The notes under the pieces: model-generated
What the model saw: only the letters and a program-made list of their open reading frames with translations
What the model was told of the DNA's origin: nothing
Database searches by the model: none
Origin: an uncultured Candidatus Saccharibacteria bacterium
GTDB taxonomy: Bacteria > Patescibacteriota > Minisyncoccia > Phycocordibacterales > UBA918
Length of the DNA stretch: 64,000 nucleotides
Direction of reading: 5' to 3'
NCBI GenBank assembly: GCA_964626635.1
Contig: CAZVFY010000004.1
Span: 530 to 64,529, forward strand
In this document: one piece after another, positions 25,227 through 34,031 of the stretch
Numbering within the stretch: the first letter of the stretch is position 1
Layout: every line of letters begins with the position of its first letter
Made by a program: the position numbers and the translations under genes

Positions 25227-25440
25227 CCTCCAAACATGAAGCAAGGTGGTCTGGAGTCAAGAACGCAAAAATAATGTTGCGTGCTATAATGCTTTCATCA
25301 CGAGAGTGATTTTGATCTTTTTACAATAGTAAAAGGGCCCAACCGCCGCATATCTTTATGCGATGAGTGGTTCTAAAATCCGACAAAAGTAAAGAGCTCC
25401 TTATGAGTTCACTTTTGTCGGTCCCCAGCAGGAATGTTGG

Positions 25441-27222
25441 GTGGGTTCTTCGGAACCGGCTCGTAGGGAGTTTTTTGCTACCCGAACTGTCCCAACCATC
25501 AATGATGAGTGGATAGAAAAACCGACAAACATGACAAATACAAATACTCAGGATGAACTTCAAGATCGTATTACCGAACTTGAAGCAGAAATTTCAATAT
25601 TAAGACAACAAAAGAAATATGGTCTTGTCTGGGAAGACAAACCTGAAGATGTGGTGATGCAATGTGAGACTCATGTACCAGTTTTGTCAGAGGTCAAGTC
25701 AAAGAAGATATCTGATCAAACAAAGCTTGAAGAGAATATTTTAATTGAAGGTGATAACTACCATGCATTGTCTGTTCTGAATTACACTCATCGTAAGTCA
25801 CTTGATCTTATTTACATAGATCCTCCATATAACACTGGGGCTAGAGACTGGAAATATAATAATGACTACGTTGATAGTGATGATGCATTTCGTCACAGTA
25901 AGTGGCTTTCATTGATGAATCGGAGATTGCTGCTTGCAAGAAACTTGCTGAAAGATAGTGGCTCGCTAATTGTTGCAATTGACGACTATGAGTTAGCTAC
26001 GCTGGGTCTTTTGCTCAAGCAGGTATTACCACACTACGTACAAGACTTAATTATCATTGAACATCACCCACAAGGTGCTGGTTCAAATACTGTTTCGCGT
26101 ACTCACGAATACGCATATTTAATGACCCCACCAGGGCAAGGAATTCCAAATAGACCTCGGCGAGAAGAAAGGCAAATATGGTCACTTCGAAGATCGGGGC
26201 AAGGTGAAAATAACTGGCGAGCATACCGACCTAATCAGTTTTTTGCAATACTTGTAGATGAGAAAACAAGACAAGTCATCGGTGTAGATAAGAAATTATC
26301 TAAGAATGACAAGTACGACCTAGGTGATACGAAAGAGGGTTACAAACGTATCTATCCAATTGATGGGTCAGGCGGTGAGCGTGCGTGGAGATATAGTTTT
26401 GAATCCATGCAACGACTTATTGATCAAGGCAAAGTTGAGTATACCGATCGTGGGGCGCTGGCTGTCGTGAAAGACGTGGTATCAGCAGTGCCAGTATCGA
26501 GTATTTGGACCGGATCAAAATATAACGCCGGATCTCATGGTAGCCAGCTACTGACTAAAATCTTCGGCAAAAGCGCTGCCTTTCCGTATCCAAAGTCTTT
26601 TCATAACACTTATGACTTAGTTGATTTATTTGTTGGTAATAAGCCAAATGCTAAGGTCCTTGACTTCTTTGCTGGCTCAGGCACAACCGGTCACGCTGTT
26701 CTTGAACTCAACAAAGAAGATGGGGGCAATCGGCAGTTTATCCTCTGTACTAATAACGAGAATAAGATCGCCGAAGAAGTCACGTATCCTCGGGTGAAGA
26801 AAGTGATTAAAGGCTATGGCGATGTTGAAGGTCTTGGTGGCTCACTCCGCTACTACAAAACCAAACTAGTCGACGTTGAAAAACTCCAAAAAGTACCTGA
26901 CGAAAAACGGTTGTCGCTCACATATCAAGCTGGTGAGATGATCGCTTTACGTGAGAATACGTTTGAGGAAACTGAGAAGAATGACTGGTGGCAGATTTTC
27001 TCCAGTCAAACTAAAACCGTTGCTATCTACTTCCAAGAAGACAAGCAGAAACTACGTGAGTTAGTAAAGAAACTGAGTACCAAGCAAGAAGTGGTGTTGT
27101 ATGTATTTTCATGGAGCAAGAACGAATACACTAATGAATTTGCCGAGTACGACAACATTCGGGTGGAGGATATTCCTGAGCCAATCATTGAAGTTTACAA
27201 AGAAATTAACCGCCTGAAATAA
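25441..27222 (+). CDS. mod: Type III restriction-modification methyltransferase (Mod)
   Basis: Motif IV DLIYIDPPYNTG precedes motif I DFFAGSGTTGHAV (beta-class permutation); GTG start, alternative ATG at 25531. Confidence 0.8.
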   Translation: MGSSEPARREFFATRTVPTINDEWIEKPTNMTNTNTQDELQDRITELEAEISILRQQKKYGLVWEDKPEDVVMQCETHVPVLSEVKSKKISDQTKLEENILIEGDNYHALSVLNYTHRKSLDLIYIDPPYNTGARDWKYNNDYVDSDDAFRHSKWLSLMNRRLLLARNLLKDSGSLIVAIDDYELATLGLLLKQVLPHYVQDLIIIEHHPQGAGSNTVSRTHEYAYLMTPPGQGIPNRPRREERQIWSLRRSGQGENNWRAYRPNQFFAILVDEKTRQVIGVDKKLSKNDKYDLGDTKEGYKRIYPIDGSGGERAWRYSFESMQRLIDQGKVEYTDRGALAVVKDVVSAVPVSSIWTGSKYNAGSHGSQLLTKIFGKSAAFPYPKSFHNTYDLVDLFVGNKPNAKVLDFFAGSGTTGHAVLELNKEDGGNRQFILCTNNENKIAEEVTYPRVKKVIKGYGDVEGLGGSLRYYKTKLVDVEKLQKVPDEKRLSLTYQAGEMIALRENTFEETEKNDWWQIFSSQTKTVAIYFQEDKQKLRELVKKLSTKQEVVLYVFSWSKNEYTNEFAEYDNIRVEDIPEPIIEVYKEINRLK

Positions 27223-27223
27223 C

Positions 27224-29521
27224 ATGTTTGCCCTCAAACCATTCCAAGAAAAAGCTCTCACTGACCTTCGTTCCGTCTTCCTCAATTTATGGAAGCGCGA
27301 AGAGTCTCAGTTACCGTTGGTATTTCAGTCACCGACTGGTTCAGGGAAGACCATCATGACAGCTCAGTTCCTGAAAGACCTCACCGGCGACCCACAGTTC
27401 CAAGCAGACAAAGCGTTCTTGTGGATTTCATTTAGCCCCGACTCATACCAACAAAGTAAAGATAAACTATATAAATATTATGGTGGTGCAGGCGAACTCA
27501 ACTTGCTCGACATGAACGATCTCTCGCAAGGCAAGTTATATAACAATGACGTCTTTTTTATCAACTGGCAGAAGGTCGTATCAAAAGCCAAAGAGAACCG
27601 TAAGCTTCGTAGTGAGAACGAACAAGGTGTTTGGTTTGATCGATTTATTGAAGCTACTAAGTCAGCTGGTCGTGAGTTAGTGCTATTGGTAGACGAAGCT
27701 CATACGCACTCTAGTACAGCACTAGCACAAGAAATCATCGACCTCATTGACCCACGTATCATCATCAAAATCACTGCCACTCCGCAAGATACTGATGTAG
27801 TGCAAGCCGCTAAACTGGGATCGTATGTACAAGTAGATCGTGAGGCGGTTGTTGAGCAAGGTCTAATTAAAGAAAAACTTATTTTCCAGACCGAAGATGA
27901 GGTGAAGAAGCTTACTTCTAAACACATCTCCAAAGATGAAGTATTGCTCAAGCTGGCTGTACAGAAACGAGCTGAACTTGAAGTGGGTTACCAAGAAGCG
28001 CAAACATCTGTTAAACCACTCGTTCTGATTCAGCTCCCAAACGACTACAAAGAAACTAAAGTAGTTGAAGTAGACTCGAAAGAAGCCTTGGTGCGACAGT
28101 TTCTCTCAGAACAAGGTGTGCTCGATCACCAAATCGCTACCTGGCTATCTGGTCGGCAAGAAAATCTAGATGGTATCGAACGTCACGACTCACCAATTGA
28201 GTATCTCATATTTAAACAAGCAGCCGCGACTGGTTGGGATTGTCCACGAGCTAGTATCTTGGTAATGTTTCGAGAAATTAAAAACCCAACATTTCAGATA
28301 CAAACCATCGGTCGTATTCTGCGTATGCCTGAAGCCAAGCACTACAGTTTGCCACTATTAAACAGCGCCTATATCTACACTGACTACGAGCGAAATACTA
28401 TTATTGATGGTTATGATCGTGACGCTAACGCGAGTTCATTGCCATCGTGGAATCGTATCGAACGAAAGTCAGATATTGAGCCAATAACACTTACGTCTCA
28501 CGACTTATCCCGTACTGACTACAACGACCTTGGCGATAGTTTTCAGCACACTTTTTTGGAACAAGCACACAGTTTCTTTGGTACTACTGATAAAACTAAA
28601 CCAGCAACTGTCTTGAAGCAACTTAAAGAACAAGGTCTAGCGGTCGATGGTGTCCATCAAGATATCATTGTAAACCTTGAAATCGAAGACTATGATAACT
28701 ACCTAGAAAATCTCCAAGCTCATGGAGTGACCGCGTCGACTGAACTAACAGAGACAGATGTTGAGCGTATCTATAATCTTCTGTGCTACGACATCGTTGC
28801 CAAGCAAGACGAAGAAAAAGCTAAGTACGCACCAGCTCGGTCATGGGGCAAGCTCAAAACTGCACTTAATGTGTGGCTTGGAACTGCCACTAAGCTCTCA
28901 CGTTCAGAAATCTACGCTATGGTGGTAAATGATCTCAGTCGTCCAGCTAGCGTACTGCGGCCACTTGTCACGAAATCGTTTATAGCATACCGCCCCGTGC
29001 GTGACGGTGAAGTGATTAAGAAACAAGAACGCCAGCAAACAGTCCGTACGCTTGAACTTCCACCGCAGACACTATTTGTATCAGATGGTATCAAGAAGAA
29101 ATACCAGAAATCCGCCATGGAACCAGTGCTCACACCTGACCATATGCCAGACAATGAGAAGAAATTCATCGACTTTCTCGAAGATCACGCAAAAGTACAG
29201 TGGTGGTACAAAAATGGTGACAAAGGTACGGAACACTTTGCGTTGCCTTACACGCACAATGGCAAACAAAATCTCTTTTACCTTGACTGGATTATCAAAA
29301 CTAAATCATCTCTCTGGATTATCGACACTAAGAGCGGTATGACCGCCAAAGACGCAGAGACAAAAGCGAAAGCTGAGTCACTGCAACAGTGGCTCAAAAC
29401 ACAGACTGGTATTGAAGGCGGTATTGTCCGCCCAGCTGACGGTTGGTTTATCCATCGAGGCAAGAAATATGCCTATGAACTGGAGAATGGCTGGGAGGAC
29501 TTGAACAAAGTGCTGGTTTAG
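27224..29521 (+). CDS. res: Type III restriction enzyme Res subunit (SF2 helicase + C-terminal PD-ExK nuclease)
   Basis: Motif I SPTGSGKT, DEAH, motif VI QTIGRILR; C-terminal YLDWII…LWIIDTKSG nuclease motif; 1-nt gap after mod. Confidence 0.85.
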   Translation: MFALKPFQEKALTDLRSVFLNLWKREESQLPLVFQSPTGSGKTIMTAQFLKDLTGDPQFQADKAFLWISFSPDSYQQSKDKLYKYYGGAGELNLLDMNDLSQGKLYNNDVFFINWQKVVSKAKENRKLRSENEQGVWFDRFIEATKSAGRELVLLVDEAHTHSSTALAQEIIDLIDPRIIIKITATPQDTDVVQAAKLGSYVQVDREAVVEQGLIKEKLIFQTEDEVKKLTSKHISKDEVLLKLAVQKRAELEVGYQEAQTSVKPLVLIQLPNDYKETKVVEVDSKEALVRQFLSEQGVLDHQIATWLSGRQENLDGIERHDSPIEYLIFKQAAATGWDCPRASILVMFREIKNPTFQIQTIGRILRMPEAKHYSLPLLNSAYIYTDYERNTIIDGYDRDANASSLPSWNRIERKSDIEPITLTSHDLSRTDYNDLGDSFQHTFLEQAHSFFGTTDKTKPATVLKQLKEQGLAVDGVHQDIIVNLEIEDYDNYLENLQAHGVTASTELTETDVERIYNLLCYDIVAKQDEEKAKYAPARSWGKLKTALNVWLGTATKLSRSEIYAMVVNDLSRPASVLRPLVTKSFIAYRPVRDGEVIKKQERQQTVRTLELPPQTLFVSDGIKKKYQKSAMEPVLTPDHMPDNEKKFIDFLEDHAKVQWWYKNGDKGTEHFALPYTHNGKQNLFYLDWIIKTKSSLWIIDTKSGMTAKDAETKAKAESLQQWLKTQTGIEGGIVRPADGWFIHRGKKYAYELENGWEDLNKVLV

Positions 29522-30558
29522 TCGGTAGTGACAATCAAGTTTCGTAGTTGTTGTTCAACATCATACGCATCAGCGTGAGACAAGACACCAAGAAATGATT
29601 GCAGTGAAGCATTAAGTTTATCCTCTTCAATCTCACCAGCTTTGTATTCTCGCACTTTTTCAGCAAACTTACGTTGCATCCGTCTTTTAGTTTTAGTCCT
29701 CACCGATCGGTGATGTGGTCGTATGACATAACCAAGAAAATCGATACCTGATTTCAGCGTTCGGATTGATACTTTCTCAGGGTGTAGTTCCAGCTCCAGT
29801 CGCACACGCAAAAATGCTGTGATTGAGGGTAACAGTGATTGTAGATAGTCGTGAGAATCAGAAACTATCACAAAGTCGTCTGTGTACCGAGCATAGTGCT
29901 TCACTTTCAATTCGTGCTTCATGAATTGATCAAACTCGTTCATGTACACATTCGCAAACAGCTGTGACGTCAGGTTACCAATCGGCAGGCCTCGTTGCTC
30001 GAACAATGATTCAGACGTGGAAAAGCTACTCACTATTTCTTGCAGTATCCACTGCACATCTGGGTCAGTAATTTTACGAAACAACAACTCCAACAAAATC
30101 TCATGATCAACACTATCAAAAAACTTCTTAATATCACACTTCAACACAAAACAAGGATGCGTATAGTTTTTGCTCACCTTTCTCGTTATGGTTTCCAGTC
30201 GCTTCATGCCAACATGATTACCTTTACCAATTCGACACGAGAACGAATCGTTAATAAAGGTGGGCTCAAACAATGGGTTCAGGAGCTTAAACAAAGCATG
30301 ATGCACCACCCGATCGCGAACGGTTGCTTTGTGGATGTGTCGCACTTTTGGATCAGAAATGTAGAAACCAAAGTATGGTTGGTGACGGTATGTTTTATCT
30401 CGCAAATCTTCATGCAACGACAACAAGTTTTGCTCCAATCGATACTCAAACAACGCTACGTCTTTCTTCTTGCGTTTACCTTTCTTAAACCGATCCCACG
30501 ACAACAGCAAGTTAGCTGGTGAAATTATTAGTCTGTATAGATTATTAAACGTTTTCAT
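29518..30558 (-). CDS. diversity-generating retroelement reverse transcriptase
   Basis: RT motifs 1-7, including ATVRDRVVHHAL and the DGR-typical GLPIGNLTSQLFANVY; YTDDFVIV (YxDD); strong resemblance to Bordetella phage bRT. Start set at MKTFNN. Confidence 0.9.
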   Translation of the reverse strand: MKTFNNLYRLIISPANLLLSWDRFKKGKRKKKDVALFEYRLEQNLLSLHEDLRDKTYRHQPYFGFYISDPKVRHIHKATVRDRVVHHALFKLLNPLFEPTFINDSFSCRIGKGNHVGMKRLETITRKVSKNYTHPCFVLKCDIKKFFDSVDHEILLELLFRKITDPDVQWILQEIVSSFSTSESLFEQRGLPIGNLTSQLFANVYMNEFDQFMKHELKVKHYARYTDDFVIVSDSHDYLQSLLPSITAFLRVRLELELHPEKVSIRTLKSGIDFLGYVIRPHHRSVRTKTKRRMQRKFAEKVREYKAGEIEEDKLNASLQSFLGVLSHADAYDVEQQLRNLIVTTD

Positions 30559-30906
30559 ATGAATGAATTTGATGTTCCGATTTTTCAAAAGTCATACGAT
30601 TTGTATAAACAAATGCATGAGTATCAAAAACTGATTCCTAAGCACGATAGATACACGGTATATAGTCGCGCCGAAGATTGTTTATTGGCAGTGTTGTCAA
30701 GCTTGTTCAAAGCTAGTGCTGCCAACAAAAGTAACAAACTTATCTTGCTCGAAGAGGCTAGCACCGAACTCAACCTGCTCCGCGTGTTTTTACGACTTCT
30801 CAAAGACATCAAGTCACTCGATAACAACAAATACCTGTCGTTGCAGTCTGAAATAGATGAGATTGGTCGTATGCTGGGTGGCTGGATAAAGTCGGTCAAG
30901 AGATGA
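30559..30906 (+). CDS. avd: DGR accessory variability determinant (Avd, four-helix-bundle protein)
   Basis: …AANKSNKLILLEEASTELNLLRVFLRLL…DEIGRMLGGWIKSVKR aligns with bAvd (…AGKSNQVSKLYAADAGLAMLRFWLRFL…AEVGRILGSWIARVNR); 115 aa. Confidence 0.8.
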   Translation: MNEFDVPIFQKSYDLYKQMHEYQKLIPKHDRYTVYSRAEDCLLAVLSSLFKASAANKSNKLILLEEASTELNLLRVFLRLLKDIKSLDNNKYLSLQSEIDEIGRMLGGWIKSVKR

Positions 30907-30951
30907 CAAAACGCATCCATTATGGATGCGTTTTGTGTCAGCGAGACATTT

Positions 30952-31077
30952 CGGAAGAACACCCGAAGCCGACCCATAGTTGTCGTTGGCATTGTCGGTC
31001 CAGTTCGTGTCGAACTTGACCTTGCCGTCGTTGAACTTGAAGTTCGGGGCGTGGTCAAAGCGATCATCGGCATCCGG
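30952..31077 (-). repeat. DGR template repeat (TR)
   Basis: ~126-bp copy of 31465-31590. Every one of ~20 mismatches sits where this copy has A (minus strand) and the other copy has a different base. Confidence 0.85.
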
Positions 31078-31347
31078 CTACTGTCTGTATCCATCCGTAC
31101 CACCAACAATTGAGTATGATTCTTGTTGGCAACAAGATATGCTCTCGTGTTTGTATTTTATGTGAAAGCAGAGGCTGTAATAACCCCATCTTTACCAGAC
31201 ACAGACAAGCAATGTCTTTGTGACGATAGTGCGCTCACTATATCCATAGACACAGTGATTCTGACTATTTCTTTGTCGAACAAAGAGAGTACGGTGGCAG
31301 AAATCCGTAAACGCCTGCTCAATACGGTAACTCATAGGTAGTATAAC

Positions 31348-31382
31348 AAAAAAGATGCCCCTGACCGTTTCCAGTCAGGGGC
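31348..31382 (-). terminator. rho-independent terminator for DGR target gene (9-bp GC stem + T-run on minus strand)
   Basis: gcccctgac-cgtttcca-gtcaggggc preceded on + strand by AAAAAAG. Confidence 0.5.
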
Positions 31383-31458
31383 AAAATTTGCATCGAGTTG
31401 CTTCGCAACAAGTCAAAAATCAAAGACTCAAAAGGTTCAAGCCTTCAATTTTCAAAGA

Positions 31459-32370
31459 TCACTGCGGAAGAACACCCGAAGCCGACCCATAGCGGTCGTC
31501 GGCATAGTCGGCCCAGAACGCGCCGAACTTGACCCCGCCGTCGTTGAACCCGAAGACCGGGGCGCGGCCAAAGCGACCATCGGCAACCGGATCATCGAAC
31601 TCGTCGCCAGCGCAGTCAATCCAGAGATCGTCATAGCGCTGGAGACGTTCGGGATGGGTGAGCAACATGACACCGACAGCAAACGAACCGAGACCGTACT
31701 GACCCTGGTCGACCATGACCTCGCGAGCACGGCGAACCGAACGACCGCGATGAGTGAGACCGAACTGGGCAGCGATCACGAGGATATCGGGATGACCCTG
31801 TTCCTCGGAAAGCTTCCGCATCGTTGCTTCGGTACGAGCCGATTGGCGGAGATGCTTCGGGCCGAGCTGACCGTCACGGTAGTTGTAGAACGCACCGTCA
31901 CGATCCTGCTTGATCAGGTCGAGGACGCGAACAACATTGTCGTTGTAGGTGCCGGGCACGGGCGAATTGTCCTTCCAGATGTTGGGGATAGCGAACCATC
32001 CTTCGGCACCCTTGGGCAGTTCGCCCGGGTCGGCAACTTCGGCCCCTTCTAGCTGCGGATACAGCTCCTTGAGACGCGTGACCTGATCGGCGAGCTGCTT
32101 GGGCTCGTAGCCCGACAGGTAGCCATAGGTCGATTCGACCTCTTCATCTTTGTATTTGTCGTTGGTCGACAGCTCAGTGAGAGCGAGGACGGTCGCTGCA
32201 TGAATGCGGGCAGAAAAGTCTGCACTGCCTTTCACACGTTCAGCACCTTGCTTGCTGAGATAGTTGGCGTCGGCATAAGCCTTCACCGCCTTCTCGACAG
32301 CATCGGTAGCCATGCGGTTGAGTTGCTTGACTTGACCGTCAGTGGCCAGTTCATGAGTAAGCGTTGTCAT
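31459..32370 (-). CDS. DGR target (variable) protein; VR occupies last ~42 codons
   Basis: C-terminus …DDRYGSASGVLPQ encoded by the VR; the conserved 3' end is shared with the TR. Confidence 0.8.
   Translation of the reverse strand: MTTLTHELATDGQVKQLNRMATDAVEKAVKAYADANYLSKQGAERVKGSADFSARIHAATVLALTELSTNDKYKDEEVESTYGYLSGYEPKQLADQVTRLKELYPQLEGAEVADPGELPKGAEGWFAIPNIWKDNSPVPGTYNDNVVRVLDLIKQDRDGAFYNYRDGQLGPKHLRQSARTEATMRKLSEEQGHPDILVIAAQFGLTHRGRSVRRAREVMVDQGQYGLGSFAVGVMLLTHPERLQRYDDLWIDCAGDEFDDPVADGRFGRAPVFGFNDGGVKFGAFWADYADDRYGSASGVLPQ
31465..31590 (-). repeat. DGR variable repeat (VR)
   Basis: Homologous to TR, with substitutions exclusively at TR adenine positions. Confidence 0.85.
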
Positions 32371-32423
32371 AACGTTAGCTCCAATTGCCAGATTCGCTCT
32401 GGTCGTTGCGGTTTATCTTCCAG

Positions 32424-32480
32424 AAATGAGACAAACACACTATTTCCCAACGAGTGGGAGACAGTGTGTTTGTCTCATTT
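32424..32480. other. perfect 18-bp-stem hairpin with a nested 5-bp hairpin in its loop
   Basis: aaatgagacaaacacact-[atttcccaacgagtgggagac]-agtgtgtttgtctcattt; between the DGR target start and the upstream gene stop. Confidence 0.7.
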
Positions 32481-32537
32481 GTAGTGATTTTTATGTAAAG
32501 AACAAGTGACCTACGATAACACGAATTCAATTAAAAG

Positions 32538-34031
32538 TCAATCTGACGCTGTCGCCTTCCATTCTGTTAGCTTACTGGCTTCTTCTTCAAATCGCTCTAA
32601 ACTTTTAAACTGTTTTGGTTCTAAGTTATGTAGCTCAATACCAGGATCAGGCAGGAATATCTGCAAGGGGTATTTATCCTTGTTGTCATACACCATCTGA
32701 TTTATGTGGTCATCAAGATGACGAAAGCAAAAGTTGAGTAACTCCACCGACTTCGCAATTTCATCTAGCTGAGCGTTGATTTTGTGCGTCACATTAACAC
32801 CAATCATCTCAGACATCCGTTCCGCTACTTCCTTGAAAGCGAGAAGATATTGGTAGTTCTCATAGACATGAGATTGATGAAGTAGGTAGTTAGGGAAAGC
32901 GAATAGTATAAGGTCGTCTACCTGCTTTTCGTATTCAGTCACAAATGCTGACTGTGACTTAGACTTCACCAAGCTTTTACCTGAGATGTATGTTTTGTTA
33001 AGACTCACTTCAAAGAACCGAGTTGGACACTGCTCGATCTCTATCTTTCCGTTCTTGATCAATGTCTTTAGTTTTCGTTCACTTTTATCTTTGGCTTTGA
33101 GCCACAACTGCATCAGTTCGTTATGTGGTAACTTGGTCTCTCCTTCGTAGGTAGTGTGACCAGTGCAGTTACACAGTGGTATGTACTCACTAAAGAATAA
33201 GCCATCACGCACAGTGTCACTTACCACCTGTTCTAGCTTGTATCGGAGATCACTTAGCTGACCGAGCTTGGTGCGCAGTTCGTCCTCGTCTTCATATGCA
33301 ATGTTATGTCTTGATGCCAGTCGTTTGCCGAACTCAAGCATTGAGTAGCCAGCAAAGTGGGTATTAAAGAGCACTTGCTTTATATTGATCTTTTTATCGA
33401 GAAAAGACAGCTCATGTCCCCACGGAATCGTATCGATAATGATTTTGGTTAATGTCTCTACGTCTCCATCATTTAATGACTCTTTGCCGTGTACTATGCG
33501 AGCTAGTTGTTCCTCAGTTAAAAAGTAGCTGTGATTAGTATCTGCAATGGAGTCTAAGAGTAAGATGTCTGACTGAATATCTTTTGGTAATGAGTGTAGT
33601 GTGACGAGGTGTGCCAGTCGGTCGTATTCATACCCAGAGTATTGCAGAAAAAATTGACGCAGCTCTTCTCGTTGATCATCGGGAATAATCCGATCAAGAT
33701 AATATTTCCGTTGTCCTTCATCGTTCTTTTTAATATCAAACAGTGTTGCGGTATGCTCGAGGCGAGATAGTGCCAGCATAGTCGTGAGGTAATTAGTCTG
33801 CATATCAAACTCCAGTCGCCCGAACATATCCCAGAGATTGATGTACTGATTGTATTTTTCGGCTTCACGATAGTCTTGAGGTTTCCAGTTTATGGTCAGT
33901 GCCACCATATCTGCCTCACTAATCAGCTCCTTGCCAGTCTTTTGGAAATGAGCATCATTTCGGATCACTAAAAGTACCCGCTCTTTCGGCGTTAGGTTTC
34001 CTTTGCGTAGCATTTTAGTGATGTCTTTCAT
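32538..34031 (-). CDS. hypothetical protein (497 aa)
   Basis: Long ORF, no recognisable motif. Confidence 0.5.
   Translation of the reverse strand: MKDITKMLRKGNLTPKERVLLVIRNDAHFQKTGKELISEADMVALTINWKPQDYREAEKYNQYINLWDMFGRLEFDMQTNYLTTMLALSRLEHTATLFDIKKNDEGQRKYYLDRIIPDDQREELRQFFLQYSGYEYDRLAHLVTLHSLPKDIQSDILLLDSIADTNHSYFLTEEQLARIVHGKESLNDGDVETLTKIIIDTIPWGHELSFLDKKINIKQVLFNTHFAGYSMLEFGKRLASRHNIAYEDEDELRTKLGQLSDLRYKLEQVVSDTVRDGLFFSEYIPLCNCTGHTTYEGETKLPHNELMQLWLKAKDKSERKLKTLIKNGKIEIEQCPTRFFEVSLNKTYISGKSLVKSKSQSAFVTEYEKQVDDLILFAFPNYLLHQSHVYENYQYLLAFKEVAERMSEMIGVNVTHKINAQLDEIAKSVELLNFCFRHLDDHINQMVYDNKDKYPLQIFLPDPGIELHNLEPKQFKSLERFEEEASKLTEWKATASD

Follow-up and report, generated by a model that had tools for sequence, protein, structure and literature searches.

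How does a diversity-generating retroelement (DGR) provide its reverse transcriptase (RT) with a template RNA when an accessory gene lies inverted between the template repeat (TR) and the RT gene? The question is raised by a locus in a stretch of 64,000 nucleotides (the window) from an uncultured Candidatus Saccharibacteria bacterium (GenBank assembly GCA_964626635.1, contig CAZVFY010000004.1, positions 530 to 64,529 of the forward strand), in which the TR, the RT gene and the target gene are read from the minus strand and the accessory gene avd from the plus strand. A first-pass annotation of the window had called this architecture non-canonical and had reasoned that any transcript carrying both TR and RT must run antisense through avd, unless the RT were served by a promoter inside avd. 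We consider it probable that the locus is an intact DGR of the candidate phyla radiation (CPR) lineage in the catalogued B3 layout, expressed as four units, in which the TR would be made as a structured RNA of its own.

An intact retroelement in the gene order of its lineage

The locus is a real, intact DGR in a CPR (Patescibacteria) chromosome and belongs to an already known kind of element. Its genes and repeats, in the direction in which the target is read, are as follows.

31459-32370, minus strand: DGR target gene, an open reading frame (ORF) of 303 amino acids without Pfam or PDB match, with a GC content of 0.58-0.62 and a GGAG Shine-Dalgarno sequence
31460-31590, minus strand: variable repeat (VR), differing from the TR at 21 positions, each of them a TR adenine
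30947-31077, minus strand: TR, 131 nucleotides, defined by repeat comparison with the VR
30559-30906, plus strand: avd, 115 amino acids, with a Pfam bAvd match (PF22296, E 8e-20) that begins at residue 8, encoded against the direction of TR, RT and target and with a stop codon that touches a hairpin
29518-30558, minus strand: DGR reverse transcriptase, 346 amino acids, Pfam RVT_1 (E 2e-26), its ATG abutting the avd ATG

The RT translation carries the DGR motif IGNLTSQ, of the [I/L/V]GxxxSQ type, and the catalytic motif YTDD, of the YxDD type. Its best relative of solved structure is bRT of the Bordetella phage DGR (8ub7_A, E 5e-44), with the group II intron RTs behind (8e-23), and the PDB sequence search aligned RT residues 4-332 to bRT residues 5-313. 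Because this alignment begins at residue 4-5 and the relatives align from residue 1, the RT start is the ATG at 30558; the first-pass annotation had allowed for a better-supported start far downstream, and none was found, the N-terminus being conserved in the relatives. The TTG at 30588, which opens the longest ORF, was rejected as a start, as it adds 10 residues that are absent from the relatives. The avd product shows weak similarity to Avd of the Bordetella phage (4dwl and 8ub7_B). The RT and avd start codons abut back to back on opposite strands at 30558 and 30559, within the sequence CATATG at 30556-30561, as had been described from the letters alone, and leave no intergenic promoter region between the two genes.

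TR and VR form a 131-nucleotide repeat with an offset of 513 nucleotides and 84% identity. All 21 mismatches fall on a plus-strand T of the TR, which is an A of the minus strand, and the TR is therefore read in the RT and target direction, bearing out the earlier assignment of the TR adenines to the minus strand. The TR holds 33 such adenines. The VR makes up the last 131 nucleotides of the target ORF (303 codons), finishes at its stop codon and keeps the reading frame. Just before TR and VR diverge, the VR contains a GC-rich stretch of 28 nucleotides identical to the TR (31465-31492, CTATGGGTCGGCTTCGGGTGTTCTTCCG) that resembles an initiation of mutagenic homing (IMH) sequence; its 27-nucleotide core occurs twice in the window, against zero occurrences expected by chance. 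No Pfam match was obtained for the target protein, and its PDB sequence search was empty at E up to 1. The locus combines a DGR-clade RT, an adenine-specific TR/VR pair and a VR that closes an intact target ORF at its 3' side.

From at least 549 RT matches in species-representative genomes, 80 related loci with an RT identity of 48-66% were kept for comparison. Almost all RT relatives come from Patescibacteria/CPR genome bins; a few lie on IMG/VR contigs, one of them 88% identical. The arrangement is not due to chance, because the same order recurs in all of the related loci in which both genes were fetched: avd is inverted and lies directly upstream of the RT gene in 78 of 78. The two start codons are spaced by -2 to 13 nucleotides in 43 of the 62 loci with both starts assignable, six CATG overlaps and five CATATG abutments being found among these close-spaced starts; spacings in this range characterise the closest clade. 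The TR was located on the RT strand, beside the stop codon of the inverted avd and with adenine-specific mismatches, in about 60 loci. Four loci (L002, L084, L088 and L104) have a VR matching the TR downstream of the RT gene on the opposite strand; they retain the core order TR-(avd)-RT, together with the 5' RNA domain that is described in the next section.

The first survey of CPR DGRs is said to be that of Paul et al. in 2017. Wu et al. 2018 (NAR 46:11, PMC5758913) catalogued the order TR-(avd)-RT as Architecture B3, which accounts for 90% of their CPR DGR set. The first-pass annotation had proposed a comparison with catalogued architectures, and the order in the window matches B3: TR (31077-30947, minus), avd (plus) and RT (30558-29518, minus) follow one another with no other accessory gene, in the same order and orientation, with target and VR upstream on the strand of the RT. 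In gene order, no difference from B3 elements was found. The RT also falls in the CPR clade, being 50-66% identical to proteins of Patescibacteria genome bins, and the target lacks a known domain, as reported for CPR targets. The order does differ from the target-avd-TR-RT order of the Bordetella phage, avd being inverted between TR and RT, so the term non-canonical is apt with respect to that phage; it is overstated beyond it, since the layout is catalogued as B3 and present in every relative fetched. The inverted avd is the norm for the CPR lineage. Gene order alone adds little, the layout having stood in DGR catalogues since 2017-2018, and the part that is apparently undescribed is the RNA logic of the whole B3 class. 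A word search of the text of Wu et al. 2018 found no mention of promoters, spacers or RNA structure, and full-text literature searches, which did not cover Paul et al. 2017, returned no account of a 5' RNA domain, of the start-codon abutment or spacing or of B3 transcription logic; the YTTGR array that follows the VR, described below, is likewise absent from the accessible papers.

A covarying RNA domain fused to the template repeat

In the window, 382 nucleotides separate the target stop codon from the TR. Among 58 loci the VR-TR spacer is constrained in length (264-472 nucleotides) and strongly conserved. A small conserved ORF was considered for this spacer and rejected, the stop-free length ranging from 46 to 120 codons and varying without conservation. 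RNAalifold, applied to 30 sequences, predicted 39 base pairs, with compensatory double changes at 32 of them. The covariance model made from this 30-sequence alignment gave a single match in each of 69 loci, without exception on the RT strand and, in all loci with a mapped TR, directly 5' of it; it did not match any of nine non-CPR DGR loci, which are more distant. In the resulting 69-sequence alignment, 95% of cells form standard pairs (a percentage inflated by the fitting of this alignment to the model), compared with 63% when partners were shuffled and at most 50% when they were slid by 1-3 columns, and double changes occur in 36 of the 39 pairs. The region 5' of the TR is a covarying structured RNA fused to the TR. 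Its elements, and those that meet them at the other end of the TR, are listed here in the order of the RNA.

31078-31333, minus strand: 5' structured domain, about 250 nucleotides, defined by covariation; covariance-model match at 31313-31069 with 183.9 bits
31318-31309 with 31306-31297, minus strand: P1 helix, added by full-length alignment
31268-31226, minus strand: stem-loop 5' of alpha, part of the 5' domain structure
31211-31224, minus strand: alpha strand (GTCA...AGACAUU), candidate primer strand, pairing with the TR 3' flank
31207-31197 with 31092-31082, minus strand: H2 long-range helix, 11 pairs, nearly all with compensatory changes
31197-31207, minus strand: H2 5' strand, UGUCUGUGUCU, pairing with 31092-31082
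31193-31165, minus strand: stem-loop inside H2, part of the 5' domain structure
31162-31152, minus strand: conserved single strand CAUAAAAUACA inside H2, part of the 5' domain structure
31151-31105, minus strand: second stem-loop inside H2, part of the 5' domain structure
31082-31092, minus strand: H2 3' strand, ending 4 nucleotides before the TR start
30937-30950, minus strand: alpha' strand (AAUGUCU...UGAC), where the TR/VR homology ends and just beyond
30906-30936, minus strand: stem-loop of 14 bp with a 3-nucleotide loop, its arms (30906-30920 and 30922-30936) 15 nucleotides each and 100% complementary

Structured RNAs beside bacterial RT genes have been described as the motifs RT-1 to RT-19 (Weinberg et al. 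2017, PMC5737381), of which RT-10 is the region between TR and brt of the Bordetella phage BPP-1 (PMC5737381). None of these motifs, and no other family of Rfam 15, matches 30500-31500 even at E up to 10; the search of the whole window at the gathering threshold, together with that of 30500-31500 at E up to 10, returned only tRNAs, LOOT and chance microRNA matches. The domain, present in at least 69 loci, has no Rfam family and is apparently undescribed in the searchable literature.

A second duplex joins the 5' domain to the far side of the TR. The alpha strand, which is followed by a 3-nucleotide linker (GCU, 31210-31208) and then by H2, pairs with alpha' in the TR 3' flank; in the window, AGACAUU pairs with AAUGUCU and GUCA with UGAC. 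The two strands differ across loci yet stay complementary to each other, as in the pairs GAGAUGGAA/UUCCAUCUC, UUUGAGAGA/UCUCUCAAA, GGAUAGAG/CUCUAUCC, GAUUUUAGA/UCUAAAAUC and GGGAGGCGA/UCGCCUCCC. RNAduplex gave a mean of -12.1 kcal/mol for alpha with its own flank and -7.4 kcal/mol for alpha with the flanks of other loci, the own-flank mean being reached by none of 2000 permutations. When the set was de-duplicated to 26 mutually distinct loci, the values were -12.1 and -6.9 kcal/mol (0 of 5000 permutations), and two control blocks of the same RNA from these 26 loci showed matched-mismatched differences of just 0.6 and 1.5 kcal/mol. This confirms the alpha:alpha' pairing. Since the alpha and H2 strands pair both TR ends from upstream, the TR would be looped out between the two duplexes.

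The stem-loop at 30906-30936 begins 11 nucleotides past the TR end and is touched by the avd stop codon. A hairpin between the avd stop and the TR had been noted in the first-pass annotation and is present, its size and position being corrected here from 12 bp at 30908-30934 to 14 bp at 30906-30936. Folded as RNA, it has an energy of -22.7 kcal/mol over 71 nucleotides (z = -4.9). Stem-loops with at least 6 Watson-Crick pairs occur between TR and avd stop in 51 of 62 loci, their stem sequences being unrelated, and their internal wobbles are G.U on the TR/RT strand in 29 cases and on the avd strand in 5 (binomial p = 4e-5, with loci that are not fully independent). This bias towards the TR strand indicates that the stem-loop is selected in the TR transcript. 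Hairpin energy compared by strand showed no such preference, 19 loci favouring one strand and 18 the other. The 3' arm is always T-rich, and a more distant clade has a plain hairpin plus T-run on the TR strand. In the clade of the window, the GC core lies between an A-tract and a T-tract, an arrangement like that of bidirectional terminators. UUUUGU comes after the core stem CGCAUCCA/UGGAUGCG; its U residues are also able to pair with the upstream A-tract, and a consensus terminator scan is silent here. Stem-loops just after the TR were found by Handa et al. in 207 of 278 DGRs, CPR included. We read the element as the putative terminator of the TR RNA, acting in both directions so as to end avd too, and as the positional counterpart of the phage Avd-binding stem-loop.

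Predicted ends of the template RNA and expression of the genes

Between the VR and the 5' domain, the spacer holds three more features.

31413-31456, minus strand: array of five YTTGR motifs directly after the VR and target stop, absent beside the TR
31346-31383, minus strand: target-gene intrinsic terminator, in which TCTTTTTTGT follows a GC-rich stem of 12 bp
31340-31348, minus strand: predicted extended -10 promoter of the TR RNA, TGTTATACT, immediately after the target terminator

A hairpin plus T-run equivalent to the target terminator is visible in the aligned relatives. The extended -10 element recurs as well: TGnTAnnnT ends 21-30 nucleotides before the start of the covariance-model match in about 33 of 64 loci, and most of the remaining loci show TAnnnT at the same position when the printed sequences are compared by eye. 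The TR RNA is predicted from this element to start near 31333. A scan of 29400-32600 for sigma-70 consensus promoters and terminators recovered the target terminator; it gave no promoter near the avd/RT junction, and its total of sites was not above that of shuffles. The YTTGR motifs (consensus CTTGA) average 3.5 per 80 nucleotides after the VR versus 0.5 after the TR in 58 loci, with a spacing that is mostly 8 nucleotides, 7-9 and 17 nucleotides also being common. Since only the VR side is marked in this way, the array is a candidate target-recognition or protein-binding element.

We then considered how RT and avd, whose start codons abut, might be expressed. A Shine-Dalgarno sequence precedes 5 of 39 window genes, and a -10-like hexamer (often TGnTAnnnT) lies 5-10 nucleotides before the ATG in 14 of 37, most often at 8 nucleotides, whereas control offsets gave 2-6. 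The rarity of the former and the closeness of the latter to the ATGs suggest that leaderless mRNAs are common in this genome and a main way in which the organism expresses its genes. In a sister clade, avd and RT are separated by a spacer of about 30 nucleotides containing a run of 7-11 G and then TAnnnT, and in six loci the RT start follows exactly 7 nucleotides later; this TAnnnT would therefore be a leaderless promoter of the RT's own. The G-run was seen in L100, L102 (just upstream of the junction), L105, L112, L113, L116, L119, L121, L125 and L126. It abuts TAnnnT in most sister-clade loci and is absent from the window's own clade; a G-run touching a -10 element could make RT/avd phase-variable by slippage.

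The window has CAAATT 7 nucleotides before the RT ATG. Promoters embedded in the coding sequences were sought by counting -10-like hexamers 5-9 nucleotides before each ATG and comparing them with 300 synonymous-codon resamplings per locus. For the RT, 16 hexamers were counted at 4/6 matches versus 10.8 expected, with no significance at 3/6 or 5/6 matches, and for avd there was no excess over the resamplings. As the protein sequences by themselves would lead to about this frequency of hexamers, we do not claim embedded promoters as shown. A -35-like TTGAAA inside avd was rejected: it is the antisense of conserved Ile-Phe-Lys/Gln codons, alternates with TTTAAA in about half of the loci and has the wrong spacing to any -10. 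Of the two routes named in the first-pass annotation, an RT promoter inside avd remains the likelier, with no clear signal in the synonymous-codon control. Our preferred reading, which we regard as about an even call, is divergent near-leaderless transcription in which each promoter lies in the first codons of the other gene.

The surroundings of the DGR are those of a cellular chromosome, the window encoding FtsH, RecG, NAD-dependent DNA ligase, GatA, glutamate dehydrogenase and a type IV pilus-type ATPase. The DGR adjoins type III restriction-modification genes. The RT gene converges with the type III restriction gene res (27224-29521): their stop codons, at 29518-29520 (minus strand) and at 29519-29521, overlap, and no terminator was found between the two genes. 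Further along, the Rfam LOOT match (25336-25457, plus strand; 55 bits, gathering score 46.4) overlaps with its 3' end the GTG start at 25441 of a type III methyltransferase-like ORF (25441-27222). On the other side, the target gene stands out by its GC content, 0.58-0.62 compared with about 0.41 in its neighbours, or 0.59 when set against the 0.41 of the RT gene, and the high GC extends outside the VR; among 47 loci, the target without its VR is richer than the RT gene by 15 GC points on average, and by more than 8 in 42 of them. The window target is also among the only five of the 39 window genes with a Shine-Dalgarno sequence. Between its start at 32370 and the upstream gene (32538-34031, minus strand) lies a 26-nucleotide inverted repeat (32424-32480, 92% complementary, 5-nucleotide loop), which is probably the terminator of that upstream gene and would therefore leave just about 50 nucleotides for the target-gene promoter.

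The template RNA compared with phage and retron RNAs, and the competing explanations

The DGR mechanism is known almost wholly from one phage element, in which the Sp region lies downstream of the TR and one operon expresses avd, TR and brt. In the BPP-1 complex (Handa et al. 2024, bioRxiv 10.1101/2023.10.23.563531), Sp47-56 and TR117-129 form the template:primer duplex, with priming from Sp A56, and two nucleotides later Sp59-70 pairs with an avd segment upstream of the TR to form the cPRT Stop duplex. Beyond this duplex, Sp forms a short stem-loop, then unpaired adenosines and the single-stranded 'Thumb Ring', and finally a long stem-loop that binds bRT; the Avd-binding stem-loop is Sp3-33, directly after the TR (Handa et al. 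2024).

When the window is set beside BPP-1 (PDB 8ub7; PMC6182149), the RT is homologous over its full length, Avd is homologous, and the transfer from TR to VR is adenine-specific. The RNAs share no sequence similarity and have a common connectivity: one strand pairs with the TR 3' end and then, 2-3 nucleotides on, with the segment just upstream of the TR, and in both RNAs that strand continues with a stem-loop, a single strand and a second stem-loop. The H2 3' strand stands where the phage cPRT Stop duplex stands, and the stem-loop directly after the TR resembles phage Sp3-33 in its position. The differences lie in arrangement. The phage Sp is found downstream of the TR, between TR and brt, whereas here the Sp-like strand is upstream and avd is inverted; no downstream Sp of the BPP-1 type was found, the strands that pair both TR ends lying upstream and RT-10 giving no match. 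The TR here appears to have its own promoter and terminator, in contrast to the avd-TR-brt operon of the phage, and the VR side carries the YTTGR array and then a terminator, where the phage has a GC-rich hairpin directly after the IMH.

Tentatively, and with somewhat less than even confidence, we propose that the B3 template RNA is a circular permutation of the phage DGR RNA, the Sp-like part having moved upstream of the TR. The primer, stop-duplex and presumed RT-binding elements would then all lie 5' of the TR, the RNA would have its own promoter, and the Avd-binding stem-loop would double as terminator. Retrons offer another point of comparison. The retron msr-msd is an independent non-coding RNA with a structured RT-binding part 5' of the template, in which the long-range a1/a2 duplex holds the ends of the template region together and the priming nucleotide lies beside it; this arrangement resembles alpha:alpha' with the conserved junction before H2. 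Retrons differ in having RTs of another clade, no Avd and no adenine mutagenesis; their cDNA remains attached as multicopy single-stranded DNA (msDNA) and is not homed into a target gene, and their non-coding RNA lies upstream of the RT and is cotranscribed with it.

Put together, the four units would work as follows. The target gene would end at its own terminator (31346-31383). The TR would be transcribed as a separate non-coding RNA of about 430 nucleotides from the extended -10 promoter at 31348-31340, starting near 31333, and would consist of the 5' domain of about 250 nucleotides, the TR, a short 3' flank and the stem-loop, with its end at the U-rich 3' side of 30906-30936. In this RNA, one continuous strand of the 5' domain would make the two duplexes, alpha:alpha' and H2, that bracket the looped-out TR, and priming may take place near the alpha/H2 junction. 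Finally, avd and RT would be transcribed divergently from their abutting ATGs, probably as leaderless or near-leaderless mRNAs. Nothing would be needed downstream of the TR stem-loop, so avd can lie inverted and no cotranscription of TR and RT would be required. The antisense cotranscript that the first-pass annotation regarded as required most likely does not arise, because the TR would be made as a self-contained structured RNA; the conserved predicted promoter of the TR, the 5' RNA domain and the terminator-like stem-loop all speak against that requirement.

Several points weigh against this reading. The TR RNA has a predicted start and a predicted end. The T-tract lies, in the clade of the window, in the extended stem, so that termination may be partial, with some read-through into antisense avd and RT. 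RNAalifold on full-length RNAs predicted neither alpha:alpha' nor the 3' hairpin, which we attribute to the poor alignment of the 3' flank, and the support for alpha:alpha' comes from the test of matched versus permuted duplex energies. Equivalence to the phage RNA elements is argued from position, there being no sequence or Rfam similarity. Handa et al. predicted CPR stop duplexes from 40 nucleotides upstream and 100 nucleotides downstream of the TR, and their pairing differs from the one proposed here. The inflated pairing percentage of the 69-sequence alignment and the outcome of the synonymous-codon resampling, both given above, belong with these points.

The explanation that survives best beside the separate TR RNA is the cotranscript itself, which we hold to be unlikely. 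It would have the TR RNA read through the stem-loop and antisense through avd, as a downstream Sp-like region, into the RT, which would be translated from the long RNA; avd would face full antisense overlap, and binding of Avd to the stem-loop might tune the read-through. The absence of intergenic space or a demonstrable promoter for the RT, with the consensus scan empty near the junction, fits this explanation, as do the embedding of the window-clade T-tract in the stem and the precedent of the Bordetella phage, which expresses avd-TR-brt as one operon; Shine-Dalgarno-independent initiation, the norm in this genome, means that an internal ATG could serve. It is countered by the T-rich 3' side of the stem-loop on the TR strand in 51 of 62 loci and the one-directional hairpin plus T-run of the distant clade. 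Moreover, the strands that pair both TR ends lie upstream, so that no downstream Sp is needed, and the sister-clade TAnnnT shortly before the RT start, at exactly 7 nucleotides in six loci, implies a promoter of the RT's own.

A separate TR RNA would also be unnecessary if the hairpin at 30906-30936 did no more than terminate avd, and if what is conserved upstream of the TR were an unrelated leader, small RNA or small gene. The hairpin does abut the avd stop, its symmetric A-tract and T-tract make it able to terminate avd, and stop-free stretches of 46-120 codons occur in the spacer; but the wobbles favour the TR strand 29 to 5, stop-free length is unconserved, and the signal is one of base-pair covariation, not of codon periodicity. 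The domain is, moreover, physically tied to the TR, as H2 ends 4 nucleotides from it and alpha bridges it to the 3' flank, and it lies directly 5' of the TR in every locus with a mapped TR. This explanation we judge very unlikely. That the locus is a decayed or inactive remnant whose layout lacks functional meaning is the least credible explanation of all: a target protein without recognisable domain would be in keeping with it, whereas all ORFs are intact, 21 of 21 differences sit at TR adenines with the VR frame kept to the stop, and layout and RNA elements are conserved across relatives whose RTs are 50-88% identical.

We return to the separate, structured TR RNA for what it would mean. The phage RNA requirements cannot apply to the hundreds of CPR DGRs with an inverted avd. 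The 5' domain, the predicted promoter and the two duplexes give concrete RNA boundaries, from about 31333 to 30900, and specific base pairs to mutate. These make it directly feasible to reconstitute a CPR DGR and to ask whether priming and stopping follow the phage mechanism in permuted form. For the engineering of DGRs toward targeted mutagenesis, a template RNA that is compact and self-contained would be of interest. If the proposal holds true, the permuted RNA would explain why, in the CPR lineage, avd can be inverted and the TR uncoupled from the RT gene.

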